A stretch of DNA of 64,000 nucleotides from Moniliella sp. 'wahieum' (GCA_003971905.1 RSEE01000041.1:248001-312000); one strand, 5' to 3'. Shown: positions 102 through 62,067, numbered from the stretch's first letter. Notes: a model not told the origin generated them from the letters alone. A program made the numbers and translations.

Positions 102-2450
102 TGTTGGGAGTTTGTTCGGCATCTAGTCCAGCTCCTCCTCCGCCTCGTCCTCGTCTCTCCGACTTCTTCACGCACCCCTGTCATGGACATGTGTACTTTT
201 AGCGAAATTCGCATCCCTAGGTCTAATCCCACATACTTTGGACCCCTCCTTGCTGCTCAAGTGGGTCCACTCAGCTGCTCCACCAATTCGGATGTCTGTC
301 TCTTCGCCGGCGACGCTGGATTCTGAATGGGGTTCTTCGAAGGTCACTGTGCGTTAAGGTCATGAGGGGTTTCAAGCTTCAAGCTGTACTGAAGCAGCAT
401 GCAGCGTGGACCTGGACCAATGTGAGTAGAGCATGACGTGCACGACGAGAGTGACGTGTTCAGCCCCAGCGCTCATCGAGCGCATCTCTAGCCGGGGGGG
501 TCGATGAGATCGATCGTAGCCGGCGGTTTGGACGTGAGCCGGATGAATGCCGGAGTGGTAGGTGGTAGTGTATGGGATAGGGGAGACCCATAAACGCAAA
601 GAACGACGTACACCAGCCTAGTGGACCCAGTTATGGATCTTAAAGCTTAACCCATAGCGGTGGCCATGAGGCATCGATGATGGAAGCTGGATGGTGGTGG
701 CTATTGGCAAAGGCTGTGGCATGTGAACGAGAGTTGATTAATGATTCTGAATGTAGGGTATAGATGTAGGTACTCAAGTTACATATACACAGCGTCTCCT
801 ATGCCAGCCGGGCTCACCGTTTGCTGACACAGCTGGGGGCCGTTGTGGGCATCGTTTTTGTGCGTGAAAAGTATGCGCTCCATTTCTTAGATCTGAGAGA
901 TCTGATGAGATCTGAGATCTCCCGTGGGCCATGGTATGCGGTACGGCCTTTACCATTGTTGGGTATTGGTTGAGTCTAGTTATACTGGTTCCAGTTGCTA
1001 GGTGCTGTGGCTACCTGAAGGCCTGATATAGGATAGGCCTCATTACATTGACATATTATTGCACAGGTTGTACTGTTTTATGTCACATGTCAAGCTAGCG
1101 CATCCTCATGATGATGCATGATGGGTGTCACATGTCATCGCGTCATCAGTGTTTACGTTTACACAGTATCCGCCCTAGTATAGGCCTTGGCCTTACATAC
1201 AATCATAGCCAAACGTATCCGAACACCGCCGGTGTCCCTTTCAGGGCGATTGTGGCATGTGAGCGCCAGGCAGCTAAAGTGTATAAGGTGAACGCACCTT
1301 GAAAATTGACGCTACAGCGAAGCTCGACAACAGGGTGCTCACCAGTCGGTGACTGCCTTCGCCGTAGGTGCTGTTGAACGTACGTTGAACGTTGAACGTT
1401 GACTGAGCGAAATCTTCGTACTCACAGTGTACATCAATACTGCTTAGGCTGATATGCTGATGAGCTTTTAACCAGGGCCTCGGGGCTCATCGATCATCGT
1501 TTTCGCCAGCCACACAGCGCGTCACCGGCCTCAACGCACAGCAGTTTGGGTTTGAGAGTGGCACCACGATGAAGCTTGAAGCTTGACATAATGTTGACAC
1601 CTTGGACTTCCGCCGGCATCTGCACCACTTTTGTCAATACCGTGTTTCGCATCTCTCGCTCTGTCTAGTTACTTTGTTTGCCCCCTTTTCTAATGATCAC
1701 CTCTCTTCAACCTTCCAGCTTGATTAGCGTCATTCCGTACTGATGATCGAGAGACTTGTTTAGTCCTGGCGGTCCCCTCTTCGAGAGAGTGATGTCATCA
1801 CACTGGTGGTGGTGGTCGAAGCCATCCTACAGAGGAGCGTAAAGCTGACCACCGCCAGGGGCTATTAGGCTGCGGAACAAGGAAAACAGAAACGAGAAAA
1901 CAGAACTCCTATAGTAGGCCTGAGGCCTCTGAGGCTGAGGAGAGGGACTGAAGAAGGGACGTTGGCCACGAGCCACCCGCGATGGCTCAATACGCACGAC
2001 CCATCTTACCATTTCCCCTCCCTCTCTGATCAGGCTCGATCCGATCTTGTATCTCATTTGGTTCGCGTTATAGTTTGCTATTGCCTTACCTTATGCCTTC
2101 ACATATGGGGTCTGTCTATACGGGAAGCTGCACACACAGAGAGACAGATGTTTGAAAAACTTGGAAAGAGAAGGAATGAAAACATGGGGAGCTGCGGGCG
2201 GGACAAGAATCGGAATAGAACGGCGCATGAGATACACCGTGAAGTACATGTGTGCGAGATTGTCAAAAGAGACAGGTAGTGGTACAAGACGAATCAGATG
2301 GGAACTGGGACTCAACCAACCCCTACCGCTTGGGCAACGACAAGTACGTGGTAGGGGGGGGAGGTTCTGTTTGGCTTCGGAGAACAAAAAGGGCAGGATG
2401 GAGCCGGGAAGGTGGTTGGACGGAAGTTCGGATGCACCCACAGGGTCGCA

Positions 2451-3915
2451 TCAAAAAAAGTATACACGTATACGATGGAGCTGGAGTAGCAGCTGTGTTC
2501 TTGAGAGAAAAAGTTGGGTAGACGGAGGCATTTGGAGCCACGGCTTGAACGGTGTGCAAAGTAGTCCAACAATAGAGGAAGCAAAGCCAACTTTGGATTC
2601 CAACGGATTAGGTCCTGCTGTTCTTCTTACGACGGGCAGGGCGCGTGTGTCCACAATCAAATCAATCCACTCGGCCGGGCAGTCCTTCTGCCGGATATGC
2701 AGTTTGGCAAAGTGCCGACGAGCATCGTATTTGCGCGCAAAGGCCTTGTTGCACGACGAAACGGGGCAAACAAAGGGACGGGGTTGCCTAGGATCATGAA
2801 CGAGGGCATGCGCGGCAAGGTTGTAGAAACGATTGAAACGACGGCCACACTCAGGGCAAATGAAGGTACCAAGTGCGGACCGACCCGTGGCCGGCGGGAC
2901 CAGGGCCGCCGGAGAGGGGGTGTGATGATCATGCACGCCGGATGGAAGATCAGACGTTGGAAATGCAATGTCGGACTGAGTGCGCCTGTGAAACGTGTGG
3001 ATCCGAGCAGAAGGATCAACAGGTGAACACGATCGGAACTGACGAGCCGAACCGCCCCGGCACAGGTCGAGAGACAAAATGGCAGGCACACTCGGCGTGC
3101 CACATCCCATTGCCGCATCGGGCTGAACCGTGTCACAATGGGAATGTCCAGGGCTCAGTTGCTGTGAGGCGCCGTCGGGCTACTTCCGATGCTGGTGGGA
3201 AAATGGATTGAAGAAGGAGCATTGGCCAGCGGTGCTGAGCCTACATCCAAGTCCAAAATCGAAGGGGCTGAAACAGCACAAGGGCCAGCTCGGAAGGGAG
3301 GCGGGGCGGTGGTAGGTCCAGGAGACGTTGTGTTGGGAGCCAGTGTGTCCAAAGGCCAAACAGATGGTACGCCTTCGAGCGGAGATTCACCTTTGGAGCA
3401 GAGCTTATTCATGGTATAGTGTCAGTGCAACACGAACGAGAGTGACGATAGCAGAAAAAAATGCTTACTGCTGCAGCAGGAGGTCCTTCGATTTCACACT
3501 CAGTCCGATCCAGCGTACCGAGTGAAGGGTGATGGGCTGGGAAGAGGGGAACGGAGGCAAGTTCGACAGGTCATTCAACCACCCAGAAAGAATTGAGCTT
3601 CCCGGATCGGATGGGGTAAATCCCGAGTACTGCCCGCTTCCCGAATCGCTCTCAGGAAAACTGGCTTCAGAACTTGAGTTGAAGAAAGGGGGGGAAGCAA
3701 GCAAATCAGGCACGTCCATCAGGCCTCCAGTTGCATCCTCGTTTGCCAGAGAGGGAGTCGTCGCATCCGCGAGAACTGGCTCGTTCGGGGCCGTCTTGAT
3801 ATGGCCTGGGTGCAGGTCATGTTAGGGAGACACAGGAAGCTGGCAGGTTGAGGCCCAAGGCGGGGAAGAACAAGTAGGCAGACAGATCCGAGAAGGGCAA
3901 CGCAGCAGTTGCCAT
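2451..3915 (-). CDS. Two-finger C2H2 zinc-finger transcription factor (Crz1-like finger residues); frameshifted in assembly
   Basis: FICPECGRRFNRFYNLAAHALVH and FVCPVSSCNKAFARKYDARRHFAKLH in ORF 2451-3110; S/P-rich N-terminal fragments; GT-AG intron at about 3403-3468 with CTGAC branch point; likely ATG at 3915 (MATAALPFSDL). The 3' end is uncertain. Confidence 0.85.
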
Positions 3916-4102: not shown

Positions 4103-4111
4103 TTTTATATA
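4103..4111 (-). promoter_or_regulatory. TATA box of the C2H2 gene
   Basis: TATATAAAA on the minus strand about 190 bp upstream of ATG 3915. Confidence 0.55.
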
Positions 4112-5203
4112 TGAAAAGCGAGACGGAGGGGGTGCCGTTGGGTGTGTGGCCAGCAAAAGGCTGCACTGGCGCCCTTGCTGTTTGAGTAGCGCTGGCTGTG
4201 TTGGCGTTGAGGTTGGAACGTTGACCGCTGGGCGCTACACACGTCAAACCCAAAGCCCTGCACGCCTTTCTCTCTCTTCGGCTGGGCGCGAGGCGGGTGT
4301 GCAAGCTGGGGTGGTGCACACATCAGTCGAGAGCATAGCATCGTCCATCATGCATCATGCATCATACATCATGCATCACCCGTCTCCGCTCAGCGCTCAC
4401 GCTGACGCTCGTCCATGCATGACACCCGACATGTGGCATGTAGCGCGGTGTGTGGCCAGAAATCGGTGATTGGTGATCGAGATGATCGGTGGCATGAGAC
4501 GCGTGACTCGGGATGCATGATGTCAGCCGGTAACCGGTAATTCAGACCCCCCTCCGTCTGAGACTCAGATCCGAGCCTCAGACCAGTGGTACTGAATATT
4601 GGATGTGGCATTCGCAGGCGCCTGGCTGAGCCACTGAGCCTCAGGGCCTCAGACCCTGAGAGGTCAGCCGGTCAGCTGGTCCCCGGTCACCGTTCAGCCC
4701 TGAGGCTGAGCGCTGGCGCTGGGGCTGAAATCGGAGATCTCAGATCTCATGTGAGTCTCAGATCTGACAAAGTGAGTTACCGGTTCCAGACAACCAGTGG
4801 GGCATGGCCGGCACATGCTGCACAGGCTGCACTCTGCCGACTTGCGGCCTCCGACCTCCGGGGCCGGATATGGACCCTCCGCAACCGCGTAAACGCGTAA
4901 CCCCAGTGTATCTTGATTTTTCGACGTGGCGTTGCTGAACCCAGCACTGCATCTCATATACCCTCCTCTCAGATCTCATCTCGGTCTCATCAGACGTGTA
5001 GTGTAGGCAGAGGTTACATGGTACTGACCCCCATGCTGTTGCTAGTAAGAAGCAATTGACTTTCGTCAGAAAAGGGTGTCGGTCGCCTGTTGGGACCCGT
5101 GGTCCCCGTACTTAGGCCAAGGTGCCTCATCACCCTTCACCCCTGATTTGTCCTCCCAAGCCTCACGTGTATACTCAGGCTTGTTTGAACCCCTGTCTCT
5201 AGG

Positions 5204-5845: not shown

Positions 5846-8641
5846 ATGTTGAATGGTCAGTTGGCCATGTAGCGTCTACACTTACGCTTCTTGAGGCTGT
5901 CCGCGATGCTATGATTCTAACACGAGAGGTATAGGACGTGGAAAGGGCACCGTCGAGAAGAAAGAAGCAGATATAAATTGAGTGACGTCGTTGACGTGTG
6001 ACCCATCGATCATCGGTCACCATGCATCATAACCGGTGACGTGTAACAAGGTGACGCTTACGACATGTGTGACGTATCGGTGACAAAACAATATATGAGT
6101 CTCCGATATAATGAGTTTTGTTTTTTTCTGTCGGCCGCACCCTGCCAACCCCCACCAACGGCAGCGAAACACACGCCCCCGCCATGAGTATACTGAGTGC
6201 ACACTCCAAACCGATTATTACTCGTTACTGGACTCCTCAGGACTGAGCCTCAGTACTCAGTCTGAGTACTAAATATACAGCCGATATACGATCCGATTAT
6301 TATACAGGCCTAAGGGCGATGCTGTGGTCTGGGTGTCCATAGGGAGCGTGTTGGAGGATATGGAGGCGAGATGGGGAGACACGTGGGGGTGAGGCATGAT
6401 GCATGATGCATGATGGTGAACGTATCCGAAACTCCACCGAGAGTTAAATGATTACAGTGATCCGCGATCATGCACATGGCATATGTCAAAAGGATATGTG
6501 ATAACAAGATGACATGCGATGACAGGTCGATCCTGGAAAGGTCTTAATGGAAAACGGTACCAAAGAGCGAATACGGGCAGGAGAGTGCGGTGCATACATA
6601 TATGACGAAAAAAGCAATGCAGTGCCGTCGACAAGATGGCTAGAACGTAGTGTCTAAAAAGCCCCAAATGGCCATTTCTCATCATCAGCACTCAGTTGTG
6701 TTGTTCGAATCGTATGAGTAACCCTAATAACTTCCCGCCGGGGTAGAGCAGGGAAGCGTCAGCTGCGGCAACTGGCAGACCGTTGCCCTCTGCTGACTTC
6801 TTCCCAAGCGGCGGCGGCAAAACAGGCAAAGCACAACGGCAGATCTGCCACATCCGATTCAATCAGGTGTTCAAGCTTCAAGCCTTATACGCGTTACCGG
6901 TTATCTGTCCCGTGTCCCGGCATCGACATCGGGCACCGCACCCGCTGGCAGCTTCCTAGTTAGGCAAGTATCGCATCAGAACTCAGATCTTAGAGTCTCA
7001 GATCTCGGACCCATCGCGCCGCACGCTATGTGTGTGGGCGTATAGCATGCGCCATGGCGCGGATGTTTGAGATTCAAACGCAACTGACGGCATAGCTCGG
7101 CAGATCAGAAGGCCAGAGGGGCCTAGAGGGCACGTGATGCATGCGGGACGTATGATGCAAACCCTATCGGAAGGGGTGCAGGCTCGTGGGGGGCCAGCCC
7201 CAGCGCGATGGCCATACAGCGATGCTCGATAAGCTCAATCCTCGATACTGGGATCTTCGGAGCCTTCCAGGCCTGAGGCCTTGAGGCCTCAGCAGACTCG
7301 AAGAGACCAGCGGGCGAGGCTGCGCAATTGTGCGCTGAGCCACAGACTGTGAGTATAGTCCAATAGTGAGCGCCAGCTCAGCGCCATGCTCACCGGTCAC
7401 GGTCACCGGCCTCATCCGCATCCGTCATCTAGTCACTAGTCACGCGTCGGGTCACATGTCGCAAGTCACCGAATACTGAGACATGCTTACCCTCAGTACG
7501 ATCGGTACGTACCAGTGTACCTTGACCTCGTAATGCCAGTTGAGAATGTTAAGATCGAGCAATAGCATAAGATCCATTGAGTTTTGAAGAGTTGCGGAGA
7601 CGACAACAGTTGAAGTGGTCCAGAGCCCATCATCCCTCAGTAGCACGTGGTCCGACGCACGCAGTGTATGAGGCCGTGCGTCCCTGCGGACCTTTTGCGG
7701 GCTTGCACTTAACCGGACTCTTCATCACGACCCATAGGTCTCTATAGCTCTCTTTAGTGCTCTGAAATGCCATGACCACATTACCTATATCGCCATCATT
7801 GCTATATCGGTGCGTGTCACTGATAATCACTGCTCCTTGGACGCCTCTGCTTGCTGTTGGTGCTTGCCCAACCATAATAAACTATTGACACTTCTGAGAT
7901 GTGCCTTGAGTACCGTTCATCAGCTTTTGCCAAGCCACACAGCCACTCCAAAAGCTTCATCGATCATCGATCATCGATCATCCTTCATCAGTACCAGTTT
8001 TCCCCGCATGCATCATTAGATCACGTCCATTTCATTGACAGAGCTTTAGGCGGGACAGGGGGAACGCTACGTCTAAACCTAAGTATAAGTATACTGTGAG
8101 ATCTAGCGCACGATGATTCGGATGCTGTGGTTCTGTTACGCAATAGGGTCGAGACGGCAGCAAGTGCCGTGTGGTGTTATTTCCGCCTTCCTACTCGACT
8201 CCGAAAGCCAAATCCATCCATGCGCTCTTGCCTCCGTCTGGGTTCACGTGCTGGTAGGAGAGCTGCTCACGCACTTTTTGATGGTATGGTTTCGTGTGTC
8301 ATGTTCGCATATGTGAACACCCAATCATCCGTCATCCTGACGTGGCATCTGCATGTAATCGATAATCGACAATCTTCATAAAATCCCCACAGTACCTCAG
8401 CCGCTCAACGCTTACGCTCACACTGCTCTCAGCGCAATGTGTACGATCGATGATTTCACGTACAGAAACAAACGCCCTCAGTAGGGTCAAAGGAGGGTCT
8501 ACTTCTGCGGCTTTCAAGTTCCATTAGGGTCTAAACGCTTTCAGAAGAGTCAAAACAGGCAGAGTATATCGATCTTCCCAACATATACCAAACAAAGCGA
8601 TCATGTGCTGCCATCCCACCTCGAGCTGAAGTGCTGCACAC

Positions 8642-10590: not shown

Positions 10591-11201
10591 GCAGTGCGGC
10601 ACCTGAGTGCAATCCTCGATTGGCATCAAGTATCAAGTATCAAGCATCTGCATCATACATCAAGCTTCAAGAGCTTCAAGTGTCCCCACTGTGGCTGCGC
10701 AGTTTCGGCGTTGGGATTTCACGGCATGCTCCACCGTGCAACCCACTCCCAGCACGCCCTCCAGAAGGTCCAGTAGCATTCGCGACTAAGTATTTTCCGA
10801 GCGGGGGATGCACAACATTTTGACATCTTCACCTCGCCCATTGAAGACGAAACGTTGTGCGAGGAACAAGCCAGGGGCGTAACTGACGGGACCACCGCCT
10901 CCGTCACGATGGATGCAAACTGCTTCTGAATAGCAGGAGCGCAATGTCAGTACAATAGTTACGCCGACATCAAGATCTAGGATCTGATGACATACACGGA
11001 ACAGCATCCGTCTAATAGCTTCCCTCTCCGTACAAACCATTCCCACTATCTCTGGTGACCAGACTGATCGTTATCACTGGCAAATTGATTTAGCGGCTGG
11101 TGAAGCTTGAAGGGGCCACATGGAGCACAAGCTGAACTGCGATATAGACAAATCTATATCTTAGGACGTGCAATCAGGAAAAGATAGATTTTGGCAAAAA
11201 C

Positions 11202-16121: not shown

Positions 16122-16763
16122 GGGGGGGGCCGGTGCTGCAGGGGGATGGTGGCGGGGCGGCGGCAGGCACCAGCTGGTAGGAGCGCGTGGGCGCTGCTGG
16201 CCGTCTGAACGTTCAAGTGGGATGCATATGCGCGACAGGCCGCTCCACCACGTAAAACTTTCACCGCCGCTGGCCTTAGGCCTTAGGCCTAACTAGTAAC
16301 TGCCGACCCCGTAGGAACGCAACTGGCAGAACGAAGCACACCCGCAAGGGCGGTGGGCCGAGCTCAAGCTCCACGCTTCCCGCTCAGTGTCCAGGTAGCC
16401 TCGATCTTCAACACCTGCCAAGGAAGCTTCAGGCTTGAAGCGTTAACATCCACATCTCAGCGTAACGCCCTGGGAGGACCACACCTCGAGGCGAGTATCA
16501 ACAGCTCTGCCTGTGGGGCAGGTCTACCCGACATGCCTCTCAGTACTCTCATCGACCACCATTATACAAATCCGTCGGATGACCAGCTACAAACACACAG
16601 CCGCACAAGCAATTGGGGGAAGTGACCGCCAAGGTCGAGGATTCTGTGCAAAATGCGCAGACCATTTTGTCCGAGCCAAAGGCTACGGTCGCAACCGCGT
16701 ATCCATAGGGTACATGGAGCCAACGGCGAGAAGCGTGGCGGAGACTGCAGGGGCTGACATCTC

Positions 16764-17471: not shown

Positions 17472-18751
17472 CGGTGGGGCGAGTGATCAGCGAGTGGGCA
17501 GGAGCGCGTGATCGATGGTCGATCGGTGATCCAGCCGTCGAACCGCCCAGTCGGCCGTCAGGGTCACGTGCAGTGGCAGATCCCAGAGCGGAGGCTGGGT
17601 CTGGAACGTCAGGCCTAACCTTAACTGGTTAGCACGCCCGGTGTCGCTGAGCAAAACGGGGCCGATGTACGTTCAACTGAACACTGAACGGTCCCGAAGA
17701 ATCCTCAAGTTTGACGCACTGATGGATTCCGTATCTGATGAGTGGGTTGGAGTGGCTCATGGAGCTTGAAGCTTGAAGCTTGAAGCCAGGGGATGGTGCA
17801 GCAGAGCGTAACCCACAAACGCACCACAGTATAGGGGCGTTCTGAATATAAGCGTCGCTGCGACAACCCCTGCCCCCGCTTTTTTCAATCAAGGGGTGAT
17901 AGCCGCCCACCCGCAACACCGCTGCTACTCCTACGGGATTCAGTCTGGCGAGAATGCAGTGGGCAAAATGAGGACAAGGGCTTATACTAGACGATATCCT
18001 TCTGACGGTGCAAGAAGCGGTGCATCAAGGTTGGGTTTTTGGGTTGCGACGAGCTGCGCTTTACACTGCAGCAGTTAAGAGTGGAGTCAGTGGGCTCGAG
18101 GGGTTTTGAAGTGTGTCTTAACTGTAGTTTGGTGCTCTCACCGCAGTCTTCACTTTTCTGTATACTCTACATCATAGCCTCTGATCCACAGCCCAAATAT
18201 CGTGTATATCACACCCGGATGGCCGACGACGGTGGCCGTGGCGATGCAGAGAGGAACCTGGGAATGGGAAATCGGCAATGAGTGATGCAGGAACGGGTAA
18301 GTCACCCCCCCGACCAGGGGGGAGGTAGGTATGGTATATTTGGTGTATGACCCTACTCTCAATTTGGGTTTTGTTGGCCGTCCTAATCGATAATCGCACT
18401 TGTTGTCAATGGGCAAGATAGGCCCGCCGGCGGCAACTGAATGAGAGTGTTAAACGTTATAAGAGCTGAGCTCAGACTGAGCGCTCAGCGCTCCTCCTGA
18501 GCTCTCTGGCTGCTGCACGCCTTTCAACGTCTTCTGCCACCACCGCCACCCATCTGCCCCCTCGTTCGCCTCGCACTGACCCCTTTCATTGGTGGGGCGC
18601 ATCTCATCGGCTCTGCTGTCTGCTCCGTTCCCCCATACTTGCTCCATCAAACTCCACACCCACAACCGCTCTCGAAGTGCGATAGACCTGTCCCTCCCTC
18701 ATTCCATCACTGCAAGGATTCTTCCATTCGCCTTCGTGTCATTTCCCAACT

Positions 18752-22239: not shown

Positions 22240-22265
22240 GAATCGAATCGAATCGAATCGAATCG
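22240..22265. repeat. (GAATC)n pentanucleotide microsatellite downstream of RAD23
   Basis: gaatcgaatcgaatcgaatcgaatcg read directly. Confidence 0.85.
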
Positions 22266-22315
22266 GGCAAGCGTTGCAGAGCCCGTCGCCCAACCAAAAA
22301 ATAGCACAAAAGCGA

Positions 22316-25167: not shown

Positions 25168-27753
25168 TAACCCCCTCCATAAAGGGCGCCTTGGGCACAC
25201 TCCAAGTGAGAGTCAGCTTGGCAGCTCGACAAGCCTACTCTTTGCAACAACTGTTCTGTCCGGTCTATCTCTGTAATACGTCACGTGCAACGTCGAATCC
25301 CCTCTCTCCACCCATTCTCGCGTTACCGGCACCCCCCCCACCTCAAAGATTATTGTGAGCCGTTTAATCCGATCGGTGCTGCCTAACTAGTGGCGCACAG
25401 TCTGATGGCTATATAGGCCTTCTCGCCTACATATCTGCGCTCCTGCAACTCTTATAGATCGGTTAATACACAAACTAGCAAGAGGAAATATAGTGCACTG
25501 TATTTGCCCCCCCAAGCATACCAATGATTTAGTTTGTTGCGACGTGGTAGTGTAGAAATGGGTAGTTCGTCCAGGCCAGTGGCGCGTGCATCTCAGCGCA
25601 CCGCGAGAGGCTAAGCCTGCCTGTGCACACGCTCCTCTCACTGCTGTCGTTCACACTCCCTCCTGTGTTGCGACCACCATTGCACGTTTGCTCTTCTCTT
25701 ACTCTACTCAGGAAGATCTGAGAGGAAAGCAATGCTCTGTCCTCGTAAAACATGAACGCATGAGATACAAGTATGGTGCATGTGAGCTGCATGAGCTGCA
25801 TGAGCGCTTGTGTGCCCAGGGCATGAGCGCCACCATGCGCCATGCATATATTGAACGTTGAACTTCTCAACGTTGAACGTACGTCGAACGGTGCAATTAA
25901 AAGGGCAACAGGTAACGCGTACCGCGCAACGTGTAACATAATGCACCGCTTATAATAAAGCCAACGAAAAGTGGCTGAGTAGGTTACCACGTGGCTACAG
26001 ACGGCTACCAGCAAGCTGCCACAAGGCCCCAAGCCCCCCGAGGCCCGAGGGCCCTGCGGGTTCAGATGCCGGCTCCGAACGGGCGACGCAAGGACAGCCT
26101 GGGACAGCAGAAGTTTTTGCTGGCGGAGGCACTTGCAGCTTGTGGCAAGCGAGTCGATGGCACCCTGGTCAGCGGGGCAACTGTGTGGCCTGTATCTCCG
26201 CCACAAATCGTATCGCACCAATCGCAAGAGTACTGTACATATACCTATCAGATCTCCCCGCACAGGGTTTGTCCAGGGAGTGGCTGGAGGGGAATTCTTG
26301 CCATGGCCAGCCAATGTCAGCGCAGGCCAGCCTGACCGCTCAGCCACGGGTATCGATTGGCGTTTTGGCACACAGGCGATGGCAGAGAGTGTGTTAGTCG
26401 GACCTAGTAATATTAGGGCTCGCTCGTCCTGCCACCGTTCCAAAAGAGCAAAATGTTCCAGCCACACCCGATCAACGCCGACGCCTACACTCCCCTCCTC
26501 TCCCCGCCCGGAAAGCTAGTTGAACATCTGTGTACTGAGGTACTGTTGTGACAGATCGAGAGACTCTAGCGCCACTGCCAATAACTGGCAGTACCGTGAC
26601 CTGGTGACAACGTATAACGCGTAACGTATATCCCGCGTAACCGCGCGCAACCCCTCCCTCTCCTTGGAGGCTCAGATTCAGTATTGAAGCGCTGAAAGAG
26701 GCGTAAGGCCCCTGAGATCAGAGACTTGAGGGTGTGAGGGACACCGCAGGTAGTTGCCCCCAAGCATGAACTTAAGAGAGTAAGAGCGCAGTAACGGCCG
26801 TCGGTAACCGGTTACCAATATATATATCCAGAGTAACCATTGCATAACCTCTGACTGGTAACATCATGCATCATGCGTATGTAAGGCCAGACGGACTGTT
26901 TTGCACTTACACACACTACACTCTTCTCTTTGTAACCCTTTGGGCCTTACGAACTTACGGCCTTACGGCCTTACGGCCTTACATGTTTTACGCCCATCCT
27001 GTGTCGCATGTGCATCATTACGCCAGTGCTTCTCGCTTTGCTTCGTTACTCGGCCCCGCGCACGCCCCGTCCGCCCCGCCGGGTTCCACCAGGTGTCACT
27101 CTGTTCGATCCACCCCTGTCGGCCCAGCATCTCAGCCCCTCTGTGGCTTCTCTTGGGTTACATATTACATCTTTTCTTGGCGAGTTTCTTTCGACGGCGC
27201 CCCAATGCACATCATGCGCGTTTAGCGCATTTTACACTGTGGGCGCACAAATACGCTGGTCACCGGCCGGGTCACCGGTCACCACGACCCACATGGCCTT
27301 GGAAAGGTGAATTTGACCAGCCCAGGGTGCGCGGTGCGGCAGGGTGCCCCCCCCACATTCTCTGCGCTTGGACCCTCCGGCATGCCTACGTACCGCCCTG
27401 CGCCTCCCAAGACAGTGGCTAGTGGTAGTGCAAGAATCAAAATGTCTCCGATTGGGCGTAACGTTGCGGCAGTAAGTACACTGGGTATCCTAAGTACTCC
27501 TCAGATTCAGATCTTCAGCCTATAACGACTCCCCATCTACCTATACCTATATGGTCAACCAGAAGCGACCTTCCCATGTGGCTATTCCTCGTAGTAATAG
27601 ACAAACCCACCATCGTCCATATCCATCACTCGCACCTCTGGCCCCGCACATCTTTTGTGGCTCTGCTCCCACTCCCAACAGACTATACTAGTAGTAGTCT
27701 CTCACCCGGTCCATCCTACACCCTCCATCCCGCCATACCGACCATACCCACCA

Positions 27754-31260: not shown

Positions 31261-32672
31261 ATGCCGCCCGCCCACGCCGCACCCGCTCGTCCTCGACCCC
31301 TCCTTCCCGGCCTATGCCGCCCGCACCCGCCCCCACCGCACCACCCAGTCCCCGCCCTCGCCGCCACACCGCCCCCCCCGCTCGCGCGAGCCTGGTCGCC
31401 GTCAAGTACAACTTCAAGCCCGAGTCGATGCACGACGACTGGCTCGGCGTCCTGCACTGCGACCCCCGACGGCGAGGCGCAGGAGTGGTGTCTCGAGCTC
31501 GAGACCGACTCCACCGCCCGCAGCCGTACCCCGCCCTCTGCCCCGACCCCACCCCCCCGCGGCCGACGCTGACGCTCCTCGTCCCCATCCCCGCCAAGCG
31601 GCCGCACAAGGACGTGCATGCATTCAAGGGCCCGCAGAAAGAGTCGGTCGATTGCGTCTTGGCTGGGACCGGACCAGCAGGTACGTCTCTTCCCTCCGTC
31701 TCTACTCCCCCCCCCTCCGCCACGCGGTGGTGCTAATTGGATCGGCTGCACTAGTCCTACCGCATCCTGCCCCTGGCATCGACGTTCAACTTGAAGCTTG
31801 ACCGCTCCACAGCGCCCTTTCTGCCCCAGCCGCAGCTGTGCTCAAGGGCGAACCTTACCGCCGCCCCTCCCCCTTGCCCGCAGCCCACAGCACACCCAGC
31901 TGCACCACCGCCAATACCGGCGGTGGCGGTGCTGCAGGACTCGACCCGTTGCCGAGTCCCAACCGACGCGACAGCCCTTCTCTCTCTCGGACCGCGGCAC
32001 TCCTCCCCTTTGGCTCGCCCAATCCGACCAGGGTGCCACTCAGGGCCGCAGCCCCTCCACCACCCGACTGCGTCTCAAGAAACTGTCCAGGGTGAGCAAC
32101 AGTGCCACCCACCGTACCCCCGTCCTACCTACCCTGGGCACCAGCCCATTCTCCCCACCCGTACGGACACCGCAACCGACAATGCGGCGCCTCCCCCACC
32201 CAAATCCAAGCCCAAACCCAAACCCAAACCCAAACCCAACCTAAACCCAAACCACCCAAAGCCGGCCAGACTCACCAAGGCCAAACCCAAGGCCAAGCCC
32301 AAGACCAAGGCGGCGCCGGGTGCCACTACTACGCCTGCCGCCACAGGTGTGGGGTTGGGCTTGGGCCTCAGCTTGCCTGGCCAACAGGACCCGGCTCCCG
32401 TCGCGGTGGAGGAAGGGCGGTCGGCCAGTCGGATGGCTCGGACGATTCGGACATTGACGATTTTGCTGCCGAGCTGGATGCTGGCTTGGAACCCGCGCGA
32501 CGAGGGGGAAGCCGAGCCGAAGGATGGCGAATACGAAGGTGATGGTAATGGGGAAGCGGAGGGGGAAGGTGAGGGCCAAGGTGAAGGTGAAGTGACTTTC
32601 GACTCGTCGGGAGCTTTGATGACGATTGAATTCGATTGCTATCGGGACCGCGTGAATCCTAGTAGGGCCTAG
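31261..32672 (+). CDS. ELL-associated factor (EAF family) RNA polymerase II elongation factor
   Basis: VAVKYNFKPESM...GVL...HAFKGPQKESVDCVLAWDRTSR|SYRILPLASTFNLKLDRS matches the EAF N-terminal domain pattern (YxFKPxS ... FxG ... CVL.D); intron at about 31681-31754; PK-rich and acidic tail. Confidence 0.7.
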
Positions 32673-33473
32673 GGTACGTTCAGACGTTCAGCGCCCAATT
32701 CAGGTCTTTCCGCTTCAAGCTTCAGGCCTCCTGACCTCAGGCTTCAGCATGTTGAGCTGAGCGTGACGCCGCCATTGTCCATCCTGATTCTACCAGTGCG
32801 GCTGGATCTGAGAAACCCTTCGTCTTGTTATATATCGTTGGCTTCGTCGCCCACTTGGATGTGCATTGGGTGGTTTCGATAGGCCCACATGCGAGCTACG
32901 TCTGTGTCATTCACCCTAACTACGGCGTATCCTCTCTCAGACCAGGCAGCCGTCTATCGTCTGCTGGACGGTGCGCACAGCGTGCATTCGATGGGGAAGC
33001 AGAATGGGTGCCGCCGGGGCCCGGGAATGTCCCGCGTCGGGCCTATTGTAAAACAGCGTTTGGAGACACTGACCAGGTGCTCACCGCGCTGGGTCGCCAC
33101 GGCAGCTAGCTAGTTGCATTGGCCCCTCATGTAACCCTCTCTCCCTTTACCGGTTCCCCCTGTCCCATCACCCGTCTCTACATTCTCCCTCTCCCCAATC
33201 CATCCTATCTATGGGCATGAAGCTAGCAACCCGCTACGCCGCACCAACAGCGATAGATATTGAGACGTTGAGTGGCGCAAGCCAGATGTCGAATGGAATG
33301 CAGTGGAGTCGATTCTCCGCGCAGGAAGAACCAAGGAAACAGCGAATGGGAATGGGAATGCAACGCAACGCACATACAGGCGGAGGACAAAAACAACAGA
33401 ACTTGGTACAGGCAAACATCAGGCTTCAAGCTTCAAGCTTCAGGCTTCAGCAACGCTTCCAACTTCAATCGGC

Positions 33474-39531: not shown

Positions 39532-42500
39532 CGTAACGAAAGACAAGAGGAGAAAGGGGAGGACGAAGCAGGAGGTGGTGTGGGGCAAGAAAGGCGCGGC
39601 TTGGGCGGGCGGGGCGGAGTGGAGTAGAGGGAGGGATGGATGTTATGCCCCTTGGAAGCGCGGCCAGGTTGGGCGAGCCGAGTCGTGGGGACTGGTCTGA
39701 GGCCAGTGGGCCGAGGCACTGCGCTGCGCTACGGCAGCGATGGGCGCGGTCAGTGTGCTGCGAAGGGGTTGGTTGCTTGGGCAGGAAGGTGCCTGAGGCT
39801 GGGAGGGAAGGGCTAGGCTGTCGGCCTGGCTCTGGCCCCCGGCTGAGCCAGCACCAGCCGCACACGGCAGGCCACGCGCCCTGGCGCTGCCGACCGCTGC
39901 CGGCGTGCCGCAGGGGGCGGCAGTCGGCAGCAGTGGCGCGGCATGGCTGATGCGCTGCCTGCCGGGCGCCCAGAGCGCACCTGCGCACCCGCCAGCACCT
40001 GGCCAGTGTCGCAGATCATGCAGTCAGCACGGGTCCATCGCTGATCGCGCATCATGCATCCCCTCTCATGCATCACAAATGCTCGCACGGCGCCTGATGG
40101 CCTGTCCATGTGGCACCAGAGCTGCGGTGGCATGACATGTGACACCGAGCTGTCACATGTCAATCCCCGCCCATGCAGGCGCCCTCGCGGTGCCCCCCGA
40201 AACCCATCCGCACCAACAATGCATTGGCCACCCGCCGCTCTCGGCTGGGCTCGATACCACTTGTCGATTGTCGCCCCAGTCCACTGTCAGCCCCCTGTCG
40301 AGTGCGACACATGGCACGTGACGCGTGACATGGGACGGTCACATGTCAGCATGCCGCATGTCCATGGCACATGTCAGACGTCCTATCGAAGGCACAGGCC
40401 CCCTGCCTCCAGCGCCCTGGCATCCACACCGAAATGCGCGCGTGCGCCTCTTCCAGCCTGCGCGGTCTAGCTCCCTCGGCGCCGATCTGTCCATCATGCC
40501 ATGCCGATGCGCCTCTGGGCGTAGGTGAAGTTGGTGACTACCGACCCTGACTCGTGACTAGCGCGGTCTGAGGCTCAGCTCAAGCTCAACTCAACACGTA
40601 CACAACAAGCTTCAAGCTTCGCGCTCTTCAAGCTTCAAGCTCTTCAAGCTTCAAGCTTCAAGCCTCAAAATGGCCCATCGATCGCTCATCGATCAGGCTC
40701 AGCGCGCTCATCGCGCCCATCGCGCTTCTGAGAGCAGTCAGTCTGAGATTCTGAGCAGACATCTGATTCGTGGTCCATGCATATGGAATGGCACGTGCAG
40801 CCGCCGATTGCCAATCCAGTCCAAGGATCGGCATTGCCCTATCATTAATGGCACGATGAGACCATCGCAACATCATATGCAACGACCATAGACCATCGCA
40901 GGCCATCCATCATCGGTGTCAGCCAGAACCGCACCTGCGGACGCTGATCGCAAGGCGACGAGGGTACTGGTATTGAAGCTTTTGAAGACTGAGTAACCGA
41001 GTAAGTGGCCAATACATACGGATGTAGATCTCTCAGATCTGAGAAGAAGATAAGAGGGAGGAATGGTACAAGTCAAAGGATAGGGATACTGGCGTTGTGC
41101 TCGGATGTATAAGAGGGTCAGAGGGTGACCGGTGACCTCGGAGGTGGGCTGGCCAATTGAATATTGACCCCTTCTGGTCAACACCACGCTAATGCGCGCT
41201 GCGCGCTACCACATCCAGTTTTCCATCCAACCTCTGTCACTATCGCTGCGTTCCCTATTTCATGCACCATGGCAGCTTCCCTGGCCTCTCTGGACCGCGG
41301 CATGCGCATCTGCCCTGCACAGAAGACCGACTGCTTCGGATTCTTCGGTTCCTGAATATGATACCCCCACGGACTCTGCGTACACGATGATCATCATTCA
41401 CATGATTGGCCGCCGGTTACCGACTCCGCCTGTACATCGCATGCCACATGCCAGGCGTGGGGCAGTGTCCCCAGGGGGCAGGACCGCAGCGAGCGCCAGC
41501 GCGCCAGTGTCCAAATGATCGGCGCGAGCTGTTCGCGGGAGCCAACGGCCGGCCGGCACACGCAACAGAAGAAGGATGATGTGCAGCGAACCCGAGCGGC
41601 CACCAACGCCGCCTGGCTCGAATACTAGGCCTAGGATCCCGCCGGCTGGAGTGGCAGGAGTGGCTCCGTGCTCAGCGGCTCAGCGCTCGTACTTCGTGCG
41701 CTGCTACAGGTCGATGACCCGACTGACAAAAACCGTGCAACATCGGTCAGTGTATGCCGCTGCACTCGCCTTTTCTCTCACTATACACCTCGATCGAGAG
41801 TGGTAATCAATATTCAATGTCCTTATCCCCACCTCGTATGACCTGCTCGTCCCTGAGCACAGCACCGGCACTACCGCAGAGCTAAAGTTCCTCTTCCTCA
41901 GCATTGCATCCCTCCTCTGCATTTCTTCGTTGTGGTGCTCCTCTGCGCTGTGTGTGTACGGGGTTGCTGGCTTCCCACTGCAGGCAAGACCTCGCCCATC
42001 GGGGACGATACACACGGAGGACTGGACGTGTTTTCCAAATTCCAAGGAACACTGGCGTGAACGTAGAAGGGAGTAGTTGTTACTGTTCTGTCGGGCAGAC
42101 TGCTGAATTTCAGCGTTCCGTCATAAGGAGGTTGCCATTGGGGGCCGCACGAGAAAGCGGGGAGTCCCGATGTGAAGGGAGGGCAGCGGCTGATCCGAAA
42201 GGTCGTTCTCTAGAGTGGAGTTTGCCTAGAAGAAGGATGAAGGGAAAGAGAGGAATGGTAGCGGCTTAGGCCATTACACTTGGATCCAGAGCAGGCAGGT
42301 TTTTACGAGAAGAAGAAGGGGAAGAAAGAAAAGCCAACAAGTTTACAGCTCAAAAGGGAACGAGTCAAAGGCAGAAAGTCAAGGCGAGGCGACGGTCAAG
42401 GACAAAGCGGGCCGAGAAGAGAACGAGGCGAGAAAGCGAGTCGAAAGCATTATGTGTAGTGTTTTGGATTTTTGACGAGCGCGAGCAGAGAAGAAAGATT

Positions 42501-52894: not shown

Positions 52895-54066
52895 GTGTGC
52901 GGGCAGGAATGAGTGCGCGGCAGCAAGACACGGGCGTGCTGCTTGCACTCAACCCGGCCGACGCCTTCTTCTGAGGTGGGAACGGCAACCCTTTGCCCCC
53001 TCCCCTTCTTTCCCCGTTTCCAGCTTTCTTCCCCGCCCTCTACTGTCGGTGCTGAGCGCTGAATTGGCAAATTCATATGATTCCTTTGAGATGGCACTGA
53101 AGTAAAAGGAGATGATTCGCAGTGATACAGCCATAATAACCGTCGGGGGCCACAGAGAGCAGGGCTGGGGGGGTTCGCCGTCTTCGGCTTTCGCTCCAAG
53201 CAGTTGCGCTCAGGGTCAGTTGGGGCGGATAGCAATAGCAGGAAGTGGTCCCGTCAAGACAAGGCAGAAAGGCAAGCCACTAAGGAAAAAGAAAACGAGG
53301 CGCTGGGGCCCCAGAACGCATCCTATAACATGCCTATGCCAACCCAGTGGCATTGAGTTTGAGCATGGTCCTCACGTCCTTGTGCGCTTTACCATCATGC
53401 CTGTGCTGTTCGAGGGGGACGACATGTCCAACGATGATGTGTGGGTGACCAGACGGGGATGCGTTGGTTGTAGCGCTTGCAAGTCCTGTACTCCACCTCG
53501 AAGGCTATTAGCGTTCCCCTGCATGCTCGCTCCATCTCCCACCTTTCTCTCCTGTCTGCTTCCCGCCAGACGTTGCTGGAAGACCGGTGTGGGTCACCAC
53601 GTTATCTCCACGCGCTGTCTGAGGCTGCTCGGCAGCTGATCCCCAGGATCGCCGAGTGCTGCCGCGTCGCACTTAAGCAGGCCAGGATGCTCCCCAAACT
53701 GCGCCGACGCCCATCTTACTCACCCCCCGCGTCCGCATCGGTGCAAGGTGTATGCCACACCCCTGTCACGGGTCACCGGCGGTCACCGGTCACCCCGGGC
53801 ACCGCGCGTCACCAGCCTGCTGCCCATTCCAAAGCTGTCGTGGCCCTCGGACCTGGACTATGACTCGACGCGCACTGCTTACGTATCCGACTGCCCCCGT
53901 GCCGGAAGTCCGGAGCCCATTGTGCAGCAAGCGCAACGAGCACCCGCCGCAGCAGCGCAACAGAGCGCCCCCCTGCGACGGCAGCGTCCTGGGCCGTTGC
54001 GCACGCGCGCGGCACCAGCGCAGTGTGGGCCAGCGGGTGCTGCGGAACTGCCGGGGCGAGCGAGGG

Positions 54067-55569: not shown

Positions 55570-55593
55570 GCTGAGCTGAGCTGAGCTGAGCTG
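55569..55593. repeat. (AGCTG)n pentamer repeat starting at the Gcn4 stop codon
   Basis: agctgagctgagctgagctgagctg read directly. Confidence 0.85.
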
Positions 55594-55971
55594 GGTTTGC
55601 CCGTCAGTGTGCTCATGCTGTGCTGTGCCCCTTTGGCTTTGCCGTCGGGGCCGGTAAAAAATTGTAGCCGTGCCCGTCTCGGCCTTTTCCATGGTTCCGT
55701 CTTTTGTGCTCTTGGAGGGCCTGTTGGCCTCCACTCTTGCTTCTTATTGTTCCTTTGCTCTTTTGACTCGAAATGACTGGTTCACACTACGCTGCTTGAA
55801 GCTTGACGCTGTATAGTGCTGTGATGCGACCACATTGGTAAGCGTTGTTGGGCCCACCCTATGTGTACACGACGGCGGCATGCAGTTGTCTACGTGCTTA
55901 TCTGCAGAAGCATTGTTGGTCACCGGTCAGGCCTCAGGAGACAAAATACCAGTCCTCCAATACAAATATTT

Positions 55972-56056
55972 GGGCGGATAGCTCAGTTGGTAGAGCGCAC
56001 GCTTCGCATGTACAGTGCCCTTGTGTGAGGTCTGGGTTCGATTCCCTATTCGTCCA
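55972..56056 (+). tRNA. tRNA-Ala(CGC) with 13-nt intron
   Basis: Acceptor stem GGGCGGA/TTCGTCC-A with G3:U70 alanine identity; D arm GCTCAGTTGGTAGAGC; anticodon arm CACGC-TTCGCA-[intron about 56009-56021]-T-GTGTG; T loop GGTTCGATTCC; poly-T terminator follows. The T stem lacks one G (homopolymer). Confidence 0.95.
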
Positions 56057-57335: not shown

Positions 57336-58236
57336 GGGGTGGTGGGCAGAGGGAGCGGGCCAGGGCGTGGGGGACGGCGTGGCAGGCAGGGCGTTGTACC
57401 TTGGACGCAGAGATCGACGCTGGGCGCTGGGGCTGCTCCGATTGACTGTGGATGCCTGGCGCGGGCCTGCCTGGGTCGCGTCTGGGGCAGCGTCGATCAT
57501 CGATCATCGCTTCCCGCGTCGGCTGGCGGGGTGCTGGACGAGGGTGCGCCACGGTGGCGCCTGGACGCGCACTGTGCCCCCGTGGCGGGGGGGGGCGGGC
57601 GGCCGACATGCCAGACCATTGATTCATTGGGCATCGAAGACCCCCGCCCAGGCCTCGCGTCCCTCTAGCTGTCCCATGCCAGCGGGCGGCTGGCTGCGCT
57701 GAGTGCGTCCCATGTCACACGCCCCACTGTCACATGTCACATGTCACCCCATCACACTCGCCTGCATTCCCGCCTTCCGCTTCCGGCTGCGCTCTGCACT
57801 CGGCACAGGCCAGCCGCTTCCTCGTTTCCACACGCCCCACTTGCCGTTTCAAGGTTCAACGTTCAAGGCGCGCGGCACGATTCAATGCTGCCGCTTGGGG
57901 GTTTCAATGTTCAGAGCGGCCAGCGCGCACGTGGCAGGCTCGCTGAGCTCAGCCAGCGCTCAGCTCCGTCGGGCTGTCTGCGCACGGCATGCAATCTGCA
58001 TGCGCAGGCCGGCGCTCAGCAGCCCAGCACAGCCGCGCTTACCTCAGCCAGCCGCCCGATGGGCACGGCGGAGCACATGGGCTGACGTCAGCGTGCGTCA
58101 GGTGGGGGCTCGCCGCGCTGGCCTGGGCTGCGGCTGCGCTGCTGGGCCTGGCTGCGTCGCCAGCGCCAGCGCCAGCGCTTCCCTCAGCAGCCCACAGCAA
58201 GTCTCACGCGTGGCTCTTGGGTCTGTGCTGCCATCC

Positions 58237-60967: not shown

Positions 60968-62067
60968 CTGGACCAAGATTCAATGGGCTGGCAGGCTGGG
61001 CGCGCTAGGGATCCAGCGTGCATCGGTATCAGCATCTCATTGATCTGAGATCTGAGAATCTGATCTCTGATCTCTGATTCCCCCCTTAGGCCTGAGGCTC
61101 AGGCTTTATTCTCAATCGATTATTCCCTTGACCTGCAGAGGCAAGTTGGATGGATGGTTCAACTAGTCCAATTCATGAAGCATGGCCCTCCCCTTTTCTC
61201 CCTCTGCCCCTCTTTCTTCCCTTGCTGTCTTTCCTCTGTTCCTCTTTTCCCCGGTCCCATGCTCACTGTCCCGGCTGGGCACGGTGGCCGTTTCCCCCCT
61301 GTGGACTGCTATTCCCGGCGGTGTCCCGCTTTCTTGTTCTTATCTTTCCCCCCCCGTGACCGCCCTCTGTTGTGTTGTGTTTTCTCGCCCCTCGCCCCGC
61401 AGCGGGGGTCGGGAGGGAACAGCGACAGTGTGGCATGCCAATGGACCGCCTGCCCCATCGCCGCGTGTGCGCCGTGAAGCATAGAGAGAGCAGCGCTCGG
61501 CCCATCGTTCTGCGCGGGACGATGCGGATGATGTCTGTTGGGTGGGCTTGGATTCAATATTCATCTCCAGACCAGGCGAGGCGCGGGTGGCCGCGAGTGA
61601 AAGCGGCTGGGGCGGCGCTCTTTCACACTGTGCTGGCCACTCGCCCCTCCCAGCGCCAACCGTTCGCCCGCGGGCCAGCGCCAATGTGCGGGGAAAATCA
61701 GCCAGGCAGCACAGCACAGCAGCTGCATGCCACACCCCACTACCACAGCACACCCCCCACCCCCCTGCACATCCCTCACCGGCCACCCACGCACGACGCA
61801 TGACGGCATGACGCACGATACCCACCCCCCACTGCCCCTGTGCCAGCCGCGTCGCCCAGCTGCGCTGCTGGTGCTGCCCCGCCCCGCGCCTGGCACTGGC
61901 GCTGTGCGGCCCACCGCACACGCTGCCCCTGTGCGGGCGGCGGGCAGGGCCAGCGCGGCGGGCGAAGGCAGCCGCAGCCCCGCTCAGCGCAGCCCAGCCC
62001 AACTTCAACTTCCCACCCGGCGCCTCGCACGCCCTCCCCACCACCTCCTCCACCGCCCCATCGCACG

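Follow-up and report, generated by a model that had tools for sequence, protein, structure and literature searches.

Period-7 arrays at T-N-A sites in a Moniliella genome resemble scars of a site-specific insertion process

Known footprints and palindromic repeats

Transposons of the hAT group create an 8-bp target duplication and leave variable footprints. Tandem palindromic repeats are made in vitro by polymerases, either through hairpin elongation or by a polymerase combined with a restriction enzyme. Intergenic heptamer repeats of prokaryotes (cyanobacterial STRR, Xanthomonas GGGAATC) were reportedly described by Rehm et al. in 2015; their units are not self-complementary, hairpins arise from inverted pairs of arrays and the hosts are bacterial or archaeal. 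For Ac/Ds, PMC4561436 describes footprints as palindromic sequences from flanking DNA that are made via hairpins, and it reports mPing excision as mostly precise. TNA is named as the classic Harbinger target duplication in PMC12477816, and a preprint states that Tc4 duplicates the TNA of CTNAG (bioRxiv 10.1101/2023.11.06.565293).

Here we analyze 64,000 nt of Moniliella sp. 'wahieum' (GCA_003971905.1 RSEE01000041.1:248001-312000, one strand), referred to as the window. Fungal genes with introns are encoded in it, and the host is a basidiomycete fungus. All counts rest on this 64-kb window and on metagenome contigs, and expected values were obtained from dinucleotide shuffles (n=200 for the period-7 array counts). 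Our literature search found no description of such T-N-A/palindrome heptamer arrays.

Period-7 arrays and their minimal unit

An earlier note on this DNA listed intergenic arrays of a 6-bp palindrome plus one spacer base, and all of these were recovered in place or a few bases away. Two entries need qualification: the array at 25851-25878 is imperfect, and what lies at 26803-26816 is no direct array but a perfect 14-bp palindrome with a flipping N. The window holds 41 perfect period-7 arrays of at least two copies (shuffle mean 3.63, maximum 9), and in 27 of them the unit is a 6-bp palindrome plus N (mean 0.365, maximum 3), which bears out the proposed excess. The palindromes were also said to begin with A; this is true for 26 of the 27 (A....T; mean 0.04, maximum 1), with a C/G spacer in 23 (mean 0.04, maximum 1). 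The constant T-N-A junction stands as well: T-N-A, a 4-bp palindrome and T-N-A with identical N occur 68 times against 2.10 expected. The middle base of the junction is free, given that TAA (6 against 0.13 expected), TCA (39 against 1.23), TGA (21 against 0.70) and TTA (2 against 0.10) are each 20-46x enriched in pairs that carry an identical N, whereas the 12 remaining X-N-Y classes, when pooled, show no enrichment in the window (8 against ~19). For TNA-N4-TNA the same-N excess is seen solely at spacer 4 with a palindromic N4 (39 against 0.98 and 21 against 0.85 expected); TNA pairs around a 2-bp palindrome number 9 (7.58 expected) and those around a 6-bp palindrome 2 (0.58 expected).

Reverse-complement-symmetric units account for 27/41 arrays at period 7 against 22/119, 3/66, 1/9 and 0/8 at periods 5, 6, 8 and 9, and among the periods compared (5-9) the enrichment is restricted to period 7. 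The suggested 5-mer analogue does not hold up as a class, random units being symmetric in 28.5% of cases. Two long symmetric examples of period 5 lie at 55567-55593 and 22240-22265. The spacer had also been described as flipping often, a claim that is contradicted by the counts: the same N is found 68 times against 9 for a flipped N (perfect 10-bp palindromes; 2.15 expected), and a separate count within arrays gives 60 direct against 7 flipped spacers.

At its smallest, the structure is no heptamer duplication. It is the 12-mer TNAxy + rc(xy) + TNAxy, in which two direct copies of 5 nt enclose a 2-nt inverted filler. This form has 83 matches at 52 loci (0.1 expected). The catalogue of arrays and units is as follows (strand "." throughout; "12-mer" denotes the minimal unit).

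372..383 (.): 12-mer, core AGCT, N=C
639..650 (.): 12-mer, core AGCT, N=A
735..746 (.): 12-mer, core TTAA, N=G
889..921 (.): imperfect AGATCT array, variable spacers; contains 12-mer 906-917 (core GATC, N=G)
1081..1092 (.): 12-mer, core CATG, N=C
1112..1123 (.): 12-mer, core TGCA, N=G
1126..1137 (.): 12-mer, core CATG, N=C
1384..1402 (.): 19-nt array, two increments, core ACGT, N=G
1487..1498 (.): 12-mer, core TCGA, N=C
1570..1586 (.): 17-nt array, core AGCT, N=G
4346..4378 (.): ATGCAT+C array, one unit mutated, perfect parts 19 nt and 12 nt, core TGCA
4388..4399 (.): 12-mer, core GCGC, N=C
4529..4540 (.): 12-mer, core CCGG, N=A
4738..4749 (.): 12-mer, core GATC, N=C
4967..4978 (.): 12-mer, core GATC, N=C
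6250..6261 (.): 12-mer, core GTAC, N=C
6395..6415 (.): 21-nt array of three odd-palindromic heptamers, core TGCA, N=G
6871..6882 (.): 12-mer, core AGCT, N=C
6889..6901 (.): different-core neighbours in frame, ACGCGT t ACCGGT t
7269..7292 (.): imperfect AGGCCT array, spacers g / tg / c
7431..7447 (.): 12-mer (core CTAG, N=C), then in-frame ACGCGT c
7952..7982 (.): AAGCTT c, then in-frame 26-nt array, core TCGA, N=C
8356..8367 (.): 12-mer, core TCGA, N=A
10660..10671 (.): 12-mer, core AGCT, N=C
11101..11112 (.): 12-mer, core AGCT, N=G
16274..16301 (.): 14-nt array (core GGCC, N=T) adjoining 12-mer (core CTAG, N=A)
17765..17785 (.): 21-nt array, core AGCT, N=G; upstream of RPS26 gene
18384..18395 (.): 12-mer, core TCGA, N=A
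18480..18493 (.): AGCGCT+C twice, perfect 14-nt array lacking the closing A and hence not of 12-mer form
25852..25863 (.): 12-mer, core ACGT, N=G, within imperfect array 25851-25890
26615..26626 (.): 12-mer, core CGCG, N=A
26862..26875 (.): 14-nt array, core TGCA, N=C
27270..27283 (.): 14-nt array, core CCGG, N=C
31790..31801 (.): 12-mer, core AGCT, N=G
32713..32729 (.): 12-mer (core AGCT, N=C), then in-frame AGGCCT c
33419..33450 (.): array with 19-nt perfect middle (core AGCT, N=C), GGCT variant units on either side
40133..40144 (.): 12-mer, core CATG, N=G
40151..40162 (.): 12-mer, core CATG, N=C
40317..40328 (.): 12-mer, core CGCG, N=G
40606..40668 (.): interrupted composite AAGCTT+C array, perfect parts 15, 16 and 22 nt
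41124..41137 (.): 14-nt array, core CCGG, N=G
41156..41167 (.): 12-mer, core ATAT, N=G
41807..41818 (.): 12-mer, core ATAT, N=C
53051..53062 (.): 12-mer, core GCGC, N=G
53781..53794 (.): 14-nt array, core CCGG, N=C
55795..55806 (.): 12-mer, core AGCT, N=G
55918..55938 (.): two overlapping 12-mers, cores CCGG then GGCC, shared N=C
57495..57508 (.): 14-nt array, core TCGA, N=C; within open frame, upstream of MADS-box match
57707..57747 (.): decayed array, 19-nt perfect part 57728-57746, core CATG, N=C
57854..57865 (.): 12-mer, core ACGT, N=C
61044..61057 (.): 14-nt array, core GATC, N=G
61552..61563 (.): 12-mer, core ATAT, N=C

Run lengths of 10, 11, 12, 13, 14 and 15 nt occur 2, 3, 18, 11, 5 and 6 times, the commonest being 12 nt (five matched positions), and in the list as inspected all 18 runs of 12 extend beyond TNA by exactly 2 nt and on one side only. 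Other fillers between TNAxy copies are far rarer than two inverted nucleotides (16 against 4.7 expected for none, 10 against 1.55 for one, 3 against 0.1 for three). Each 7-nt increment holds 2-3 nt of inverted and 4-5 nt of direct copy. Full 14-mers (duplicated odd palindromes) are found at 8 loci, against ~2 expected from chance extension. In comparison to 4485 background TNAxy sites, the usage of N, x and y at the 52 loci is no different (p = 0.064, 0.058 and 0.38), with the exception of xy=AG (13 loci against 3.9 expected); sites are used roughly as they occur in the background, and their choice looks random. Perfect palindromic cores that differ from each other but share the spacer base stand in frame 6 times at distance 7 and 6 times at distance 14 (0.38 and 0.47 in shuffles; local baseline ~1.6). 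Array edges carry degenerate units, and both orientations are mixed along the window.

The arrays share period 7, an intergenic location and many unrelated units under one architecture with the prokaryotic heptamer repeats. Unlike those, they are self-complementary as single arrays, follow the T-N-A and 4-bp-palindrome rule and lie among fungal intron-bearing genes, and they fall outside that group.

Genomic setting and turnover

By eye, the arrays had seemed to avoid conserved exons, and the counts agree: 13 reading frames with Pfam support make up 21.6% of the window, yet only one of the 52 loci lies inside them (p = 5e-5, binomial). Autocorrelation at lag 7 reaches 3.8-6x in blocks of non-coding DNA against 1.1x in one coding-rich block. 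The arrays at 17765-17785 and 18480-18493 sit between divergent genes (RPS26 and the next open frame), and upstream regions hold arrays, as does a putative 3'-3' spacer (5850-9120). The loci behave like neutral DNA: all but one lie outside Pfam frames, with degenerate edges and mixed orientations. One transposon family as the source of all arrays was also looked for, but self-BLAST of the window gave two trivial matches and no transposon family, MITE or dispersed repeats, and a transposase Pfam match was seen in 0 of its 289 open frames (at least 100 aa).

Indels of 7, 13 and 14 bp distinguish paralogous copies in the related, basidiomycete-like metagenome contig L079, and they fall precisely on such arrays; a single GTAAC in one copy corresponds to three in-frame units in another, and a 6-bp palindromic insertion (CCCGGG beside CCC) is present too. 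The same 12-mers and mixed arrays recur in independent metagenome assemblies (L011, L047, L079, L087, L090, L118 and L119), and these contigs are basidiomycete-like.

A putative insertion process and its alternatives

Ordinary microsatellites do not look like this; the pattern rather resembles a scar left by a site-specific break-and-repair or insertion process that has not been described. Our leading, though still tentative, interpretation is that a lineage-enriched mutational process inserts 7 bp at T-N-A sites in frameshift-tolerant DNA and that the arrays are its neutral scars. Each event would turn ...TNAxy... into ...TNAxy-y'x'-TNAxy..., adding 5 nt copied directly and 2 nt copied in inverted form from the neighbouring bases, though a split into 4 direct and 3 inverted nucleotides describes it just as well. 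The sequence itself shows that such an event generates the 4-bp palindrome, and the A....T hexamer with it. The shape is that expected of a staggered double-strand break if both overhangs are filled in, by which the target would be duplicated, and one end gains a short palindromic addition before blunt joining. Longer arrays would then result from further events at the duplicated site and from ordinary 7-bp slippage, with subsequent decay by point mutation; comparison of the L079 paralogues appears to support these lengthening and decay steps. A mutational process writing sequence at T-N-A in non-coding DNA, as had been proposed earlier, gives the best fit; site usage mirrors background TNAxy, and array edges decay.

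The putative order of break, fill-in and palindromic addition would follow the same logic as the excision footprints of hairpin-type transposons. As in the hAT (Ac/Ds) footprints described in PMC4561436, the target duplication survives in two copies with flank-derived palindromic bases in between: an intact TNAxy repeat stands on both sides in the 83 matches, and the filler is the rc(xy) of the adjoining copy. Unlike in hAT, with its 8-bp duplication, the repeat measures 5 nt, the filler is nearly always 2 nt and T-N-A is obligatory; no matching element is present in the window. The directly repeated T-N-A junction with its free middle base is shared with PIF/Harbinger and Tc4. Their duplication is however 3 bp long, against TNA plus two more bases here (18/18 12-mers), mPing excision is mostly precise, and their footprints would be element-derived or absent whereas the core here varies with the flank; we know of no flank-derived palindromes in PIF/Harbinger or Tc4 footprints. 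That these transposases duplicate T-N-A may be taken as a lead to a T-N-A-selecting agent, not as a demonstration. The scar interpretation is weakened by the fact that the window contains no transposon, MITE or transposase, that hairpin footprints of known type vary in length while two inverted nucleotides are near-exclusive here, that T-N-A at one end of a 5-bp repeat is odd for a symmetric dimeric enzyme, and that the eight 14-mer loci are not predicted.

With less assurance, we consider it possible that this basidiomycete lineage has an active, undescribed endogenous activity which recognizes T-N-A and repeatedly writes fixed 7-bp palindrome-creating insertions into non-coding DNA; candidates would be a transposase, whether domesticated or not, or another pair of nuclease and polymerase. 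If true, such an activity would leave a new, sequence-defined mutational signature and account for a measurable part of the intergenic DNA.

Unlikely, but the best of the alternatives, is replication-linked template switching or fold-back synthesis, an idea of the earlier note. Here the growing 3' end would take the wrong strand as its template for a short while before returning, and palindromic units would be written with no need for a double-strand break or nuclease. It would account for the 2-3 inverted nucleotides beside a direct copy in each increment (the 1-nt overlap, T, could be the switch point), for the weak enrichment of flipped-N 10-bp palindromes and for the CCCGGG insertion in L079. 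Simple fold-back nonetheless predicts the complement of N, and because the odd base seldom flips (9 against 68), pure fold-back synthesis is unsupported; hairpin-primed fold-back as the main step also fits poorly with a mere 2-3 of 7 nt being inverted. The in vitro products are likewise tandem repeats of palindromic units, but there the strand is self-copied and an odd centre would alternate with its complement, whereas here the centre base stays the same. Moreover, microhomology should suit any complementary pair, yet C-N-G, G-N-C and A-N-T are not enriched, and neither are other periods.

Slippage favouring self-complementary heptamers, whose looped-out units or flaps fold as hairpins and escape repair, seems improbable to us. 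As in hairpin-forming micro- and minisatellites, the arrays are tandem and non-coding, 2-4 units long with decayed edges, differ by whole units between the L079 paralogues (7/14 bp for arrays of at least two units) and have units that are reverse-complement-symmetric save one base. Unlike such satellites, they have one period, one junction and one of the weakest hairpin classes: the predicted energy for three units averages -2.96 kcal/mol for A-first against -5.29 for C-first and -5.40 for G-first units, which are the absent classes. Hairpin stability leaves the A..T rule unexplained. Symmetric units are in excess neither at period 5 nor at period 9, whereas an unconstrained unit should give similar neighbouring periods. 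A single copy cannot yield the 12-mer by slippage either, and a 7-bp tandem duplication gives 14-mers whereas the observed peak is 12.

Equally improbable are selected binding or structural sites (nucleosome exclusion, boundary, promoter) that are read by shape or symmetry and not by core. The highly rigid rule, the different-core neighbours with a shared spacer, the arrays between divergent genes (e.g. near RPS26) and the same structures in other basidiomycete-like contigs are consistent with selection. Against it, cores track background TNAxy frequency, arrays occupy the putative 3'-3' spacer as well as upstream regions, units decay freely and paralogues gain or lose them; to our knowledge, no protein reads T-N-A with a free palindromic core. 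The cruciform variant raised earlier would favour perfect palindromes and stronger stems, but general palindromes with arms of 2-5 occur at 0.9-1.2x, perfect ones are only slightly enriched and A-first units are among the least stable by prediction. Chance, or an assembly or base-calling artefact, is highly implausible given the 30- to 800-fold enrichment over dinucleotide shuffles, the depletion from coding frames and the recurrence of the same 12-mers in seven contigs of independent metagenome assemblies.

Period-7 arrays and the T-N-A junction

The window consists of nuclear fungal DNA with introns and a G+C content of ~58%. A conserved exon of AP-1 mu shares 93% identity with Acaromyces ingoldii and 90% with Tilletia caries, which places the fungus in the basidiomycetes and probably in Ustilaginomycotina; no close annotated relative of it was found. 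A coding map based on GC3 was dropped as uninformative because codon bias is weak, and Pfam-supported frames (13 frames, 21.6% of the window) were taken instead:

Pfam-supported frames, first set: C2H2 protein, palmitoyl thioesterase, RPS26, Rad23, pirin, HSF, Zn2Cys6 protein
Pfam-supported frames, second set: kinase, MsrB, Rrp7, AP-1 mu, MADS-box protein, ANTH protein
55972-56056: tRNA gene, the sole Rfam match in the window

A 69% G+C block at 30000-32700 holds long open frames overlapping on both strands and hexamer repeats (among them ACCCAA x9.5 at 32198-32253) and has no Pfam match. At 14853-14958 a 42-bp repeat (x2.5) lies in a long coiled-coil-like minus-strand open frame with a weak ATG16 match.

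The arrays listed in the earlier note, with a unit of a 6-bp palindrome plus one base, are recovered by TRF and by exact-run scans of the window. We count 41 perfect period-7 arrays of at least two copies (against a mean of 3.63 in 200 dinucleotide shuffles of the window, which supply the expectation for all these array counts). The unit is a palindrome plus one base in 27 of the 41, so the proposed enrichment stands up to the shuffle control (mean 0.365). A palindrome starting with A is found in 26 of these 27, and the spacer is C or G in 23 (shuffle mean 0.04 in both cases). The restriction to A-first palindromes is likewise seen for 6-bp palindromes as a whole, which are in excess only if A-first (1.64x, against 0.85-0.90x for all others). 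Small counts show strong depletion of several such palindromes, TTTAAA (0 against 4.1 expected), GTTAAC (1 against 6.1), TCCGGA (4 against 18.5), GAATTC (3 against 12.3) and TTCGAA (3 against 10.7). Four-bp palindromes as such are not enriched in the window, and palindromes in general with arms of 2-5, whether even or odd, occur at 0.9-1.2x. An overall excess of palindromes was rejected: there is none at 4 bp and a weak one at greater arm lengths. Self-similarity at lag 7 reaches 3.8-6x in non-coding blocks against 1.1x in a coding-rich block.

The heptamer is better described as T-N-A followed by a 4-bp palindromic core. Pairs of T-S-A (S being C or G) with the same S are in excess at a spacer of 4 only (39 against 0.98 and 21 against 0.85 expected), and this excess is essentially confined to palindromic spacers. 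All four N of T-N-A are enriched (20-46x), whereas the 12 other junction classes (A-N-T, C-N-G, G-N-C) sum to 8 against ~19 expected; palindromic spacers of 2 or 6 between T-N-A show no enrichment in the window. The triplets flanking a core are direct repeats with the same N in 68 cases and complementary N in 9 (60 against 7 in a second count), which does not agree with the frequent C/G flip of the spacer reported previously. Nor does the suggested 5-mer analogue form a class: since it is only at period 7 that reverse-complement-symmetric units are in excess, the analogue comes down to two long examples, each a 4-bp palindrome plus one base:

22240-22265: period-5 array GAATC x5.2
55567-55593: period-5 array TGAGC x5.4

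A period-8 array (GGCCTTAC x5, 26943-26982), outside the T-N-A/palindrome rule, adjoins heptamer arrays upstream of HSF, and an 8-bp perfect palindrome (CAACGTTG x2.4, 51525-51543) is followed by a decayed period-7 array to 51574.

The 12-mer unit

Motif-bearing period-7 identity runs peak sharply at 12 nt (2 runs of 10 nt, 3 of 11, 18 of 12, 11 of 13, 5 of 14 and 6 of 15). By inspection, each of the 18 runs of 12 nt is a 10-mer (T-N-A, core, T-N-A) with exactly two further bases at one end only. These bases are on the left in 9 runs and on the right in the other 9, and the left and right forms are mirror images of each other on opposite strands. The resulting unit is TNAxy, the reverse complement of xy, and TNAxy again. 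This inverted filler of 2 nt has 83 matches where 0.1 would be expected, and the counts with a filler of 0, 1 or 3 nt are 16 (4.7 expected), 10 (1.55) and 3 (0.1). Reading the unit as 4+3 is equivalent to 5+2; the second base is A in 94 of 100 matches to the 4+3 form, 83 of these 94 being preceded by T. Merging of overlaps leaves 52 loci: 33 of 12 nt, 8 of 14, 1 of 17, 4 of 19, 5 of 21 and 1 of 26.

Usage of N, x and y at these loci resembles that of 4485 background TNAxy sites, except for an overuse of xy=AG (13 against 3.9 expected), and both orientations are intermixed along the window. Only one of the 52 loci falls in the 13 Pfam-supported frames (p = 5e-5), in line with the absence from conserved exons that had been judged by eye. 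Edge units of arrays are degenerate. In-frame neighbour units with different perfect cores occur six times at distance 7 and six times at distance 14 (0.38 and 0.47 expected from shuffles, with a local baseline of ~1.6), and the spacer base is identical in all six pairs at distance 7.

Two AGATCT arrays, each with two flanking bases on either side, form an 18-nt inverted pair of 100% complementarity (905-922 / 4733-4750) around the C2H2 zinc-finger gene, which is likely to be a chance effect of two similar arrays. The ATGCAT arrays at 4345-4381 and 6387-6415 make up another inverted pair, which encloses the next open frame.

Possible origins of the unit

The 12-mer cannot come from tandem duplication of 7 bp. 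Compared with a single TNAxy, it is a 7-nt insertion (5 nt copied directly and 2 nt inverted), and such an insertion creates the palindrome by itself. We put at somewhat below an even chance that site-selective break and repair at T-N-A would produce this 7-bp insertion, with arrays lengthened later by repeated hits or slippage. Outside this proposal stand the full 14-mers (8 against ~2 expected), the overuse of AG, and the off-centre position of T-N-A in a 5-nt repeat with the filler fixed at 2 nt.

Hairpin-type excision footprints, described for Ac/Ds (PMC4561436), follow the same logic as a 5-nt duplication with short palindromic filler derived from the flank; mPing excision is described there as precise. 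T-N-A is the target duplicated by Harbinger elements (PMC12477816) and by Tc4 (bioRxiv 10.1101/2023.11.06.565293). The window's units share this target, but their direct repeat measures 5 nt. Target duplications are 3 bp for Harbinger and Tc4 and 8 bp for hAT elements, again different from 5 nt. No element of these kinds is present in the window, and no transposase domain was found in its 289 frames of at least 100 aa. As neither Harbinger/Tc4 nor hAT fits, we go no further than the site-selective 7-bp insertion by break and repair at T-N-A proposed above. Full-text literature searches did not find a description of the T-N-A/palindrome rule.

Replication-linked template switching and selection for the arrays are rivals to break and repair. 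Slippage favoured by hairpins is a further rival, weakened by the data: hairpin stability does not explain the rule, as the mean folding energy for three units is -2.96 kcal/mol when they are A-first, against -5.29 and -5.40 kcal/mol for the absent C-first and G-first classes, and slippage from one copy cannot yield the 12-mer. Fold-back synthesis was suggested in the earlier note; pure fold-back copying is contradicted by the unflipped N (68 against 9).

Some candidates were rejected. A target duplication of 7 bp with T-N-A at its centre would require more than 12 nt; T-N-A is no more frequent than chance in non-palindromic period-7 arrays (by inspection). Duplication of TNA alone (3 bp), with the other 4 nt left by the ends of an element, is at odds with cores of 13 kinds, with flanks that repeat xy and with the rarity of bare 10-mers (2 of 58 runs). 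One transposon family as the source of all arrays finds no counterpart in a self-BLAST of the window, which gave no dispersed repeats; its hits were limited to one pair of arrays and a coding repeat of 64 nt.

Should a single event yield the 12-mer as its primary product, the unit would be a clean and countable mutational signature with defined target (T-N-A), stagger and filler. Such a signature would indicate specific enzymes, as 2-4-bp duplications do for topoisomerase II, and could be used to locate activity in genomes and to estimate its age. For fungal intergenic DNA, the signature would also reveal a route by which heptamer minisatellites and short palindromes, many restriction-type hexamers among them, can arise de novo, with 7-bp indels as a marker class for population studies. 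If selection is responsible instead, the arrays would be a DNA element dependent on symmetry and independent of sequence, which would be rarer still.

Arrays in metagenome contigs

Metagenome contigs were scanned with one pattern, three AAGCTT+S units, yielding at least 121 loci (651 kb). Most of these loci lack the phenomenon with other cores: the density of other-core TSA-palindrome-TSA is 0.034 per kb among the matches listed, compared with 0.69 per kb in the window. The matches listed contain 27 other-core 12-mers (~1 expected), which cluster in a few contigs, L079, L047, L087, L011, L090, L118 and L119. No homology to the window was found among the matches listed.

Contig L079, which looks basidiomycete-derived, carries at 1-20020 four tandem 5.5-kb paralogues of a MOV10-like helicase gene region (80-89% identical). 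At the arrays the copies differ by indels of 7, 13 and 14 bp, and a single GTAAC in one copy corresponds to three in-frame GGTAACC-type units in another. Given the 12-mers in several contigs, these indels and the low overall density, the phenomenon is real in independent assemblies yet not universal, and it is far denser in the window. Some indels between the L079 copies are short insertions of palindromic sequence, for example CCCGGG beside CCC.
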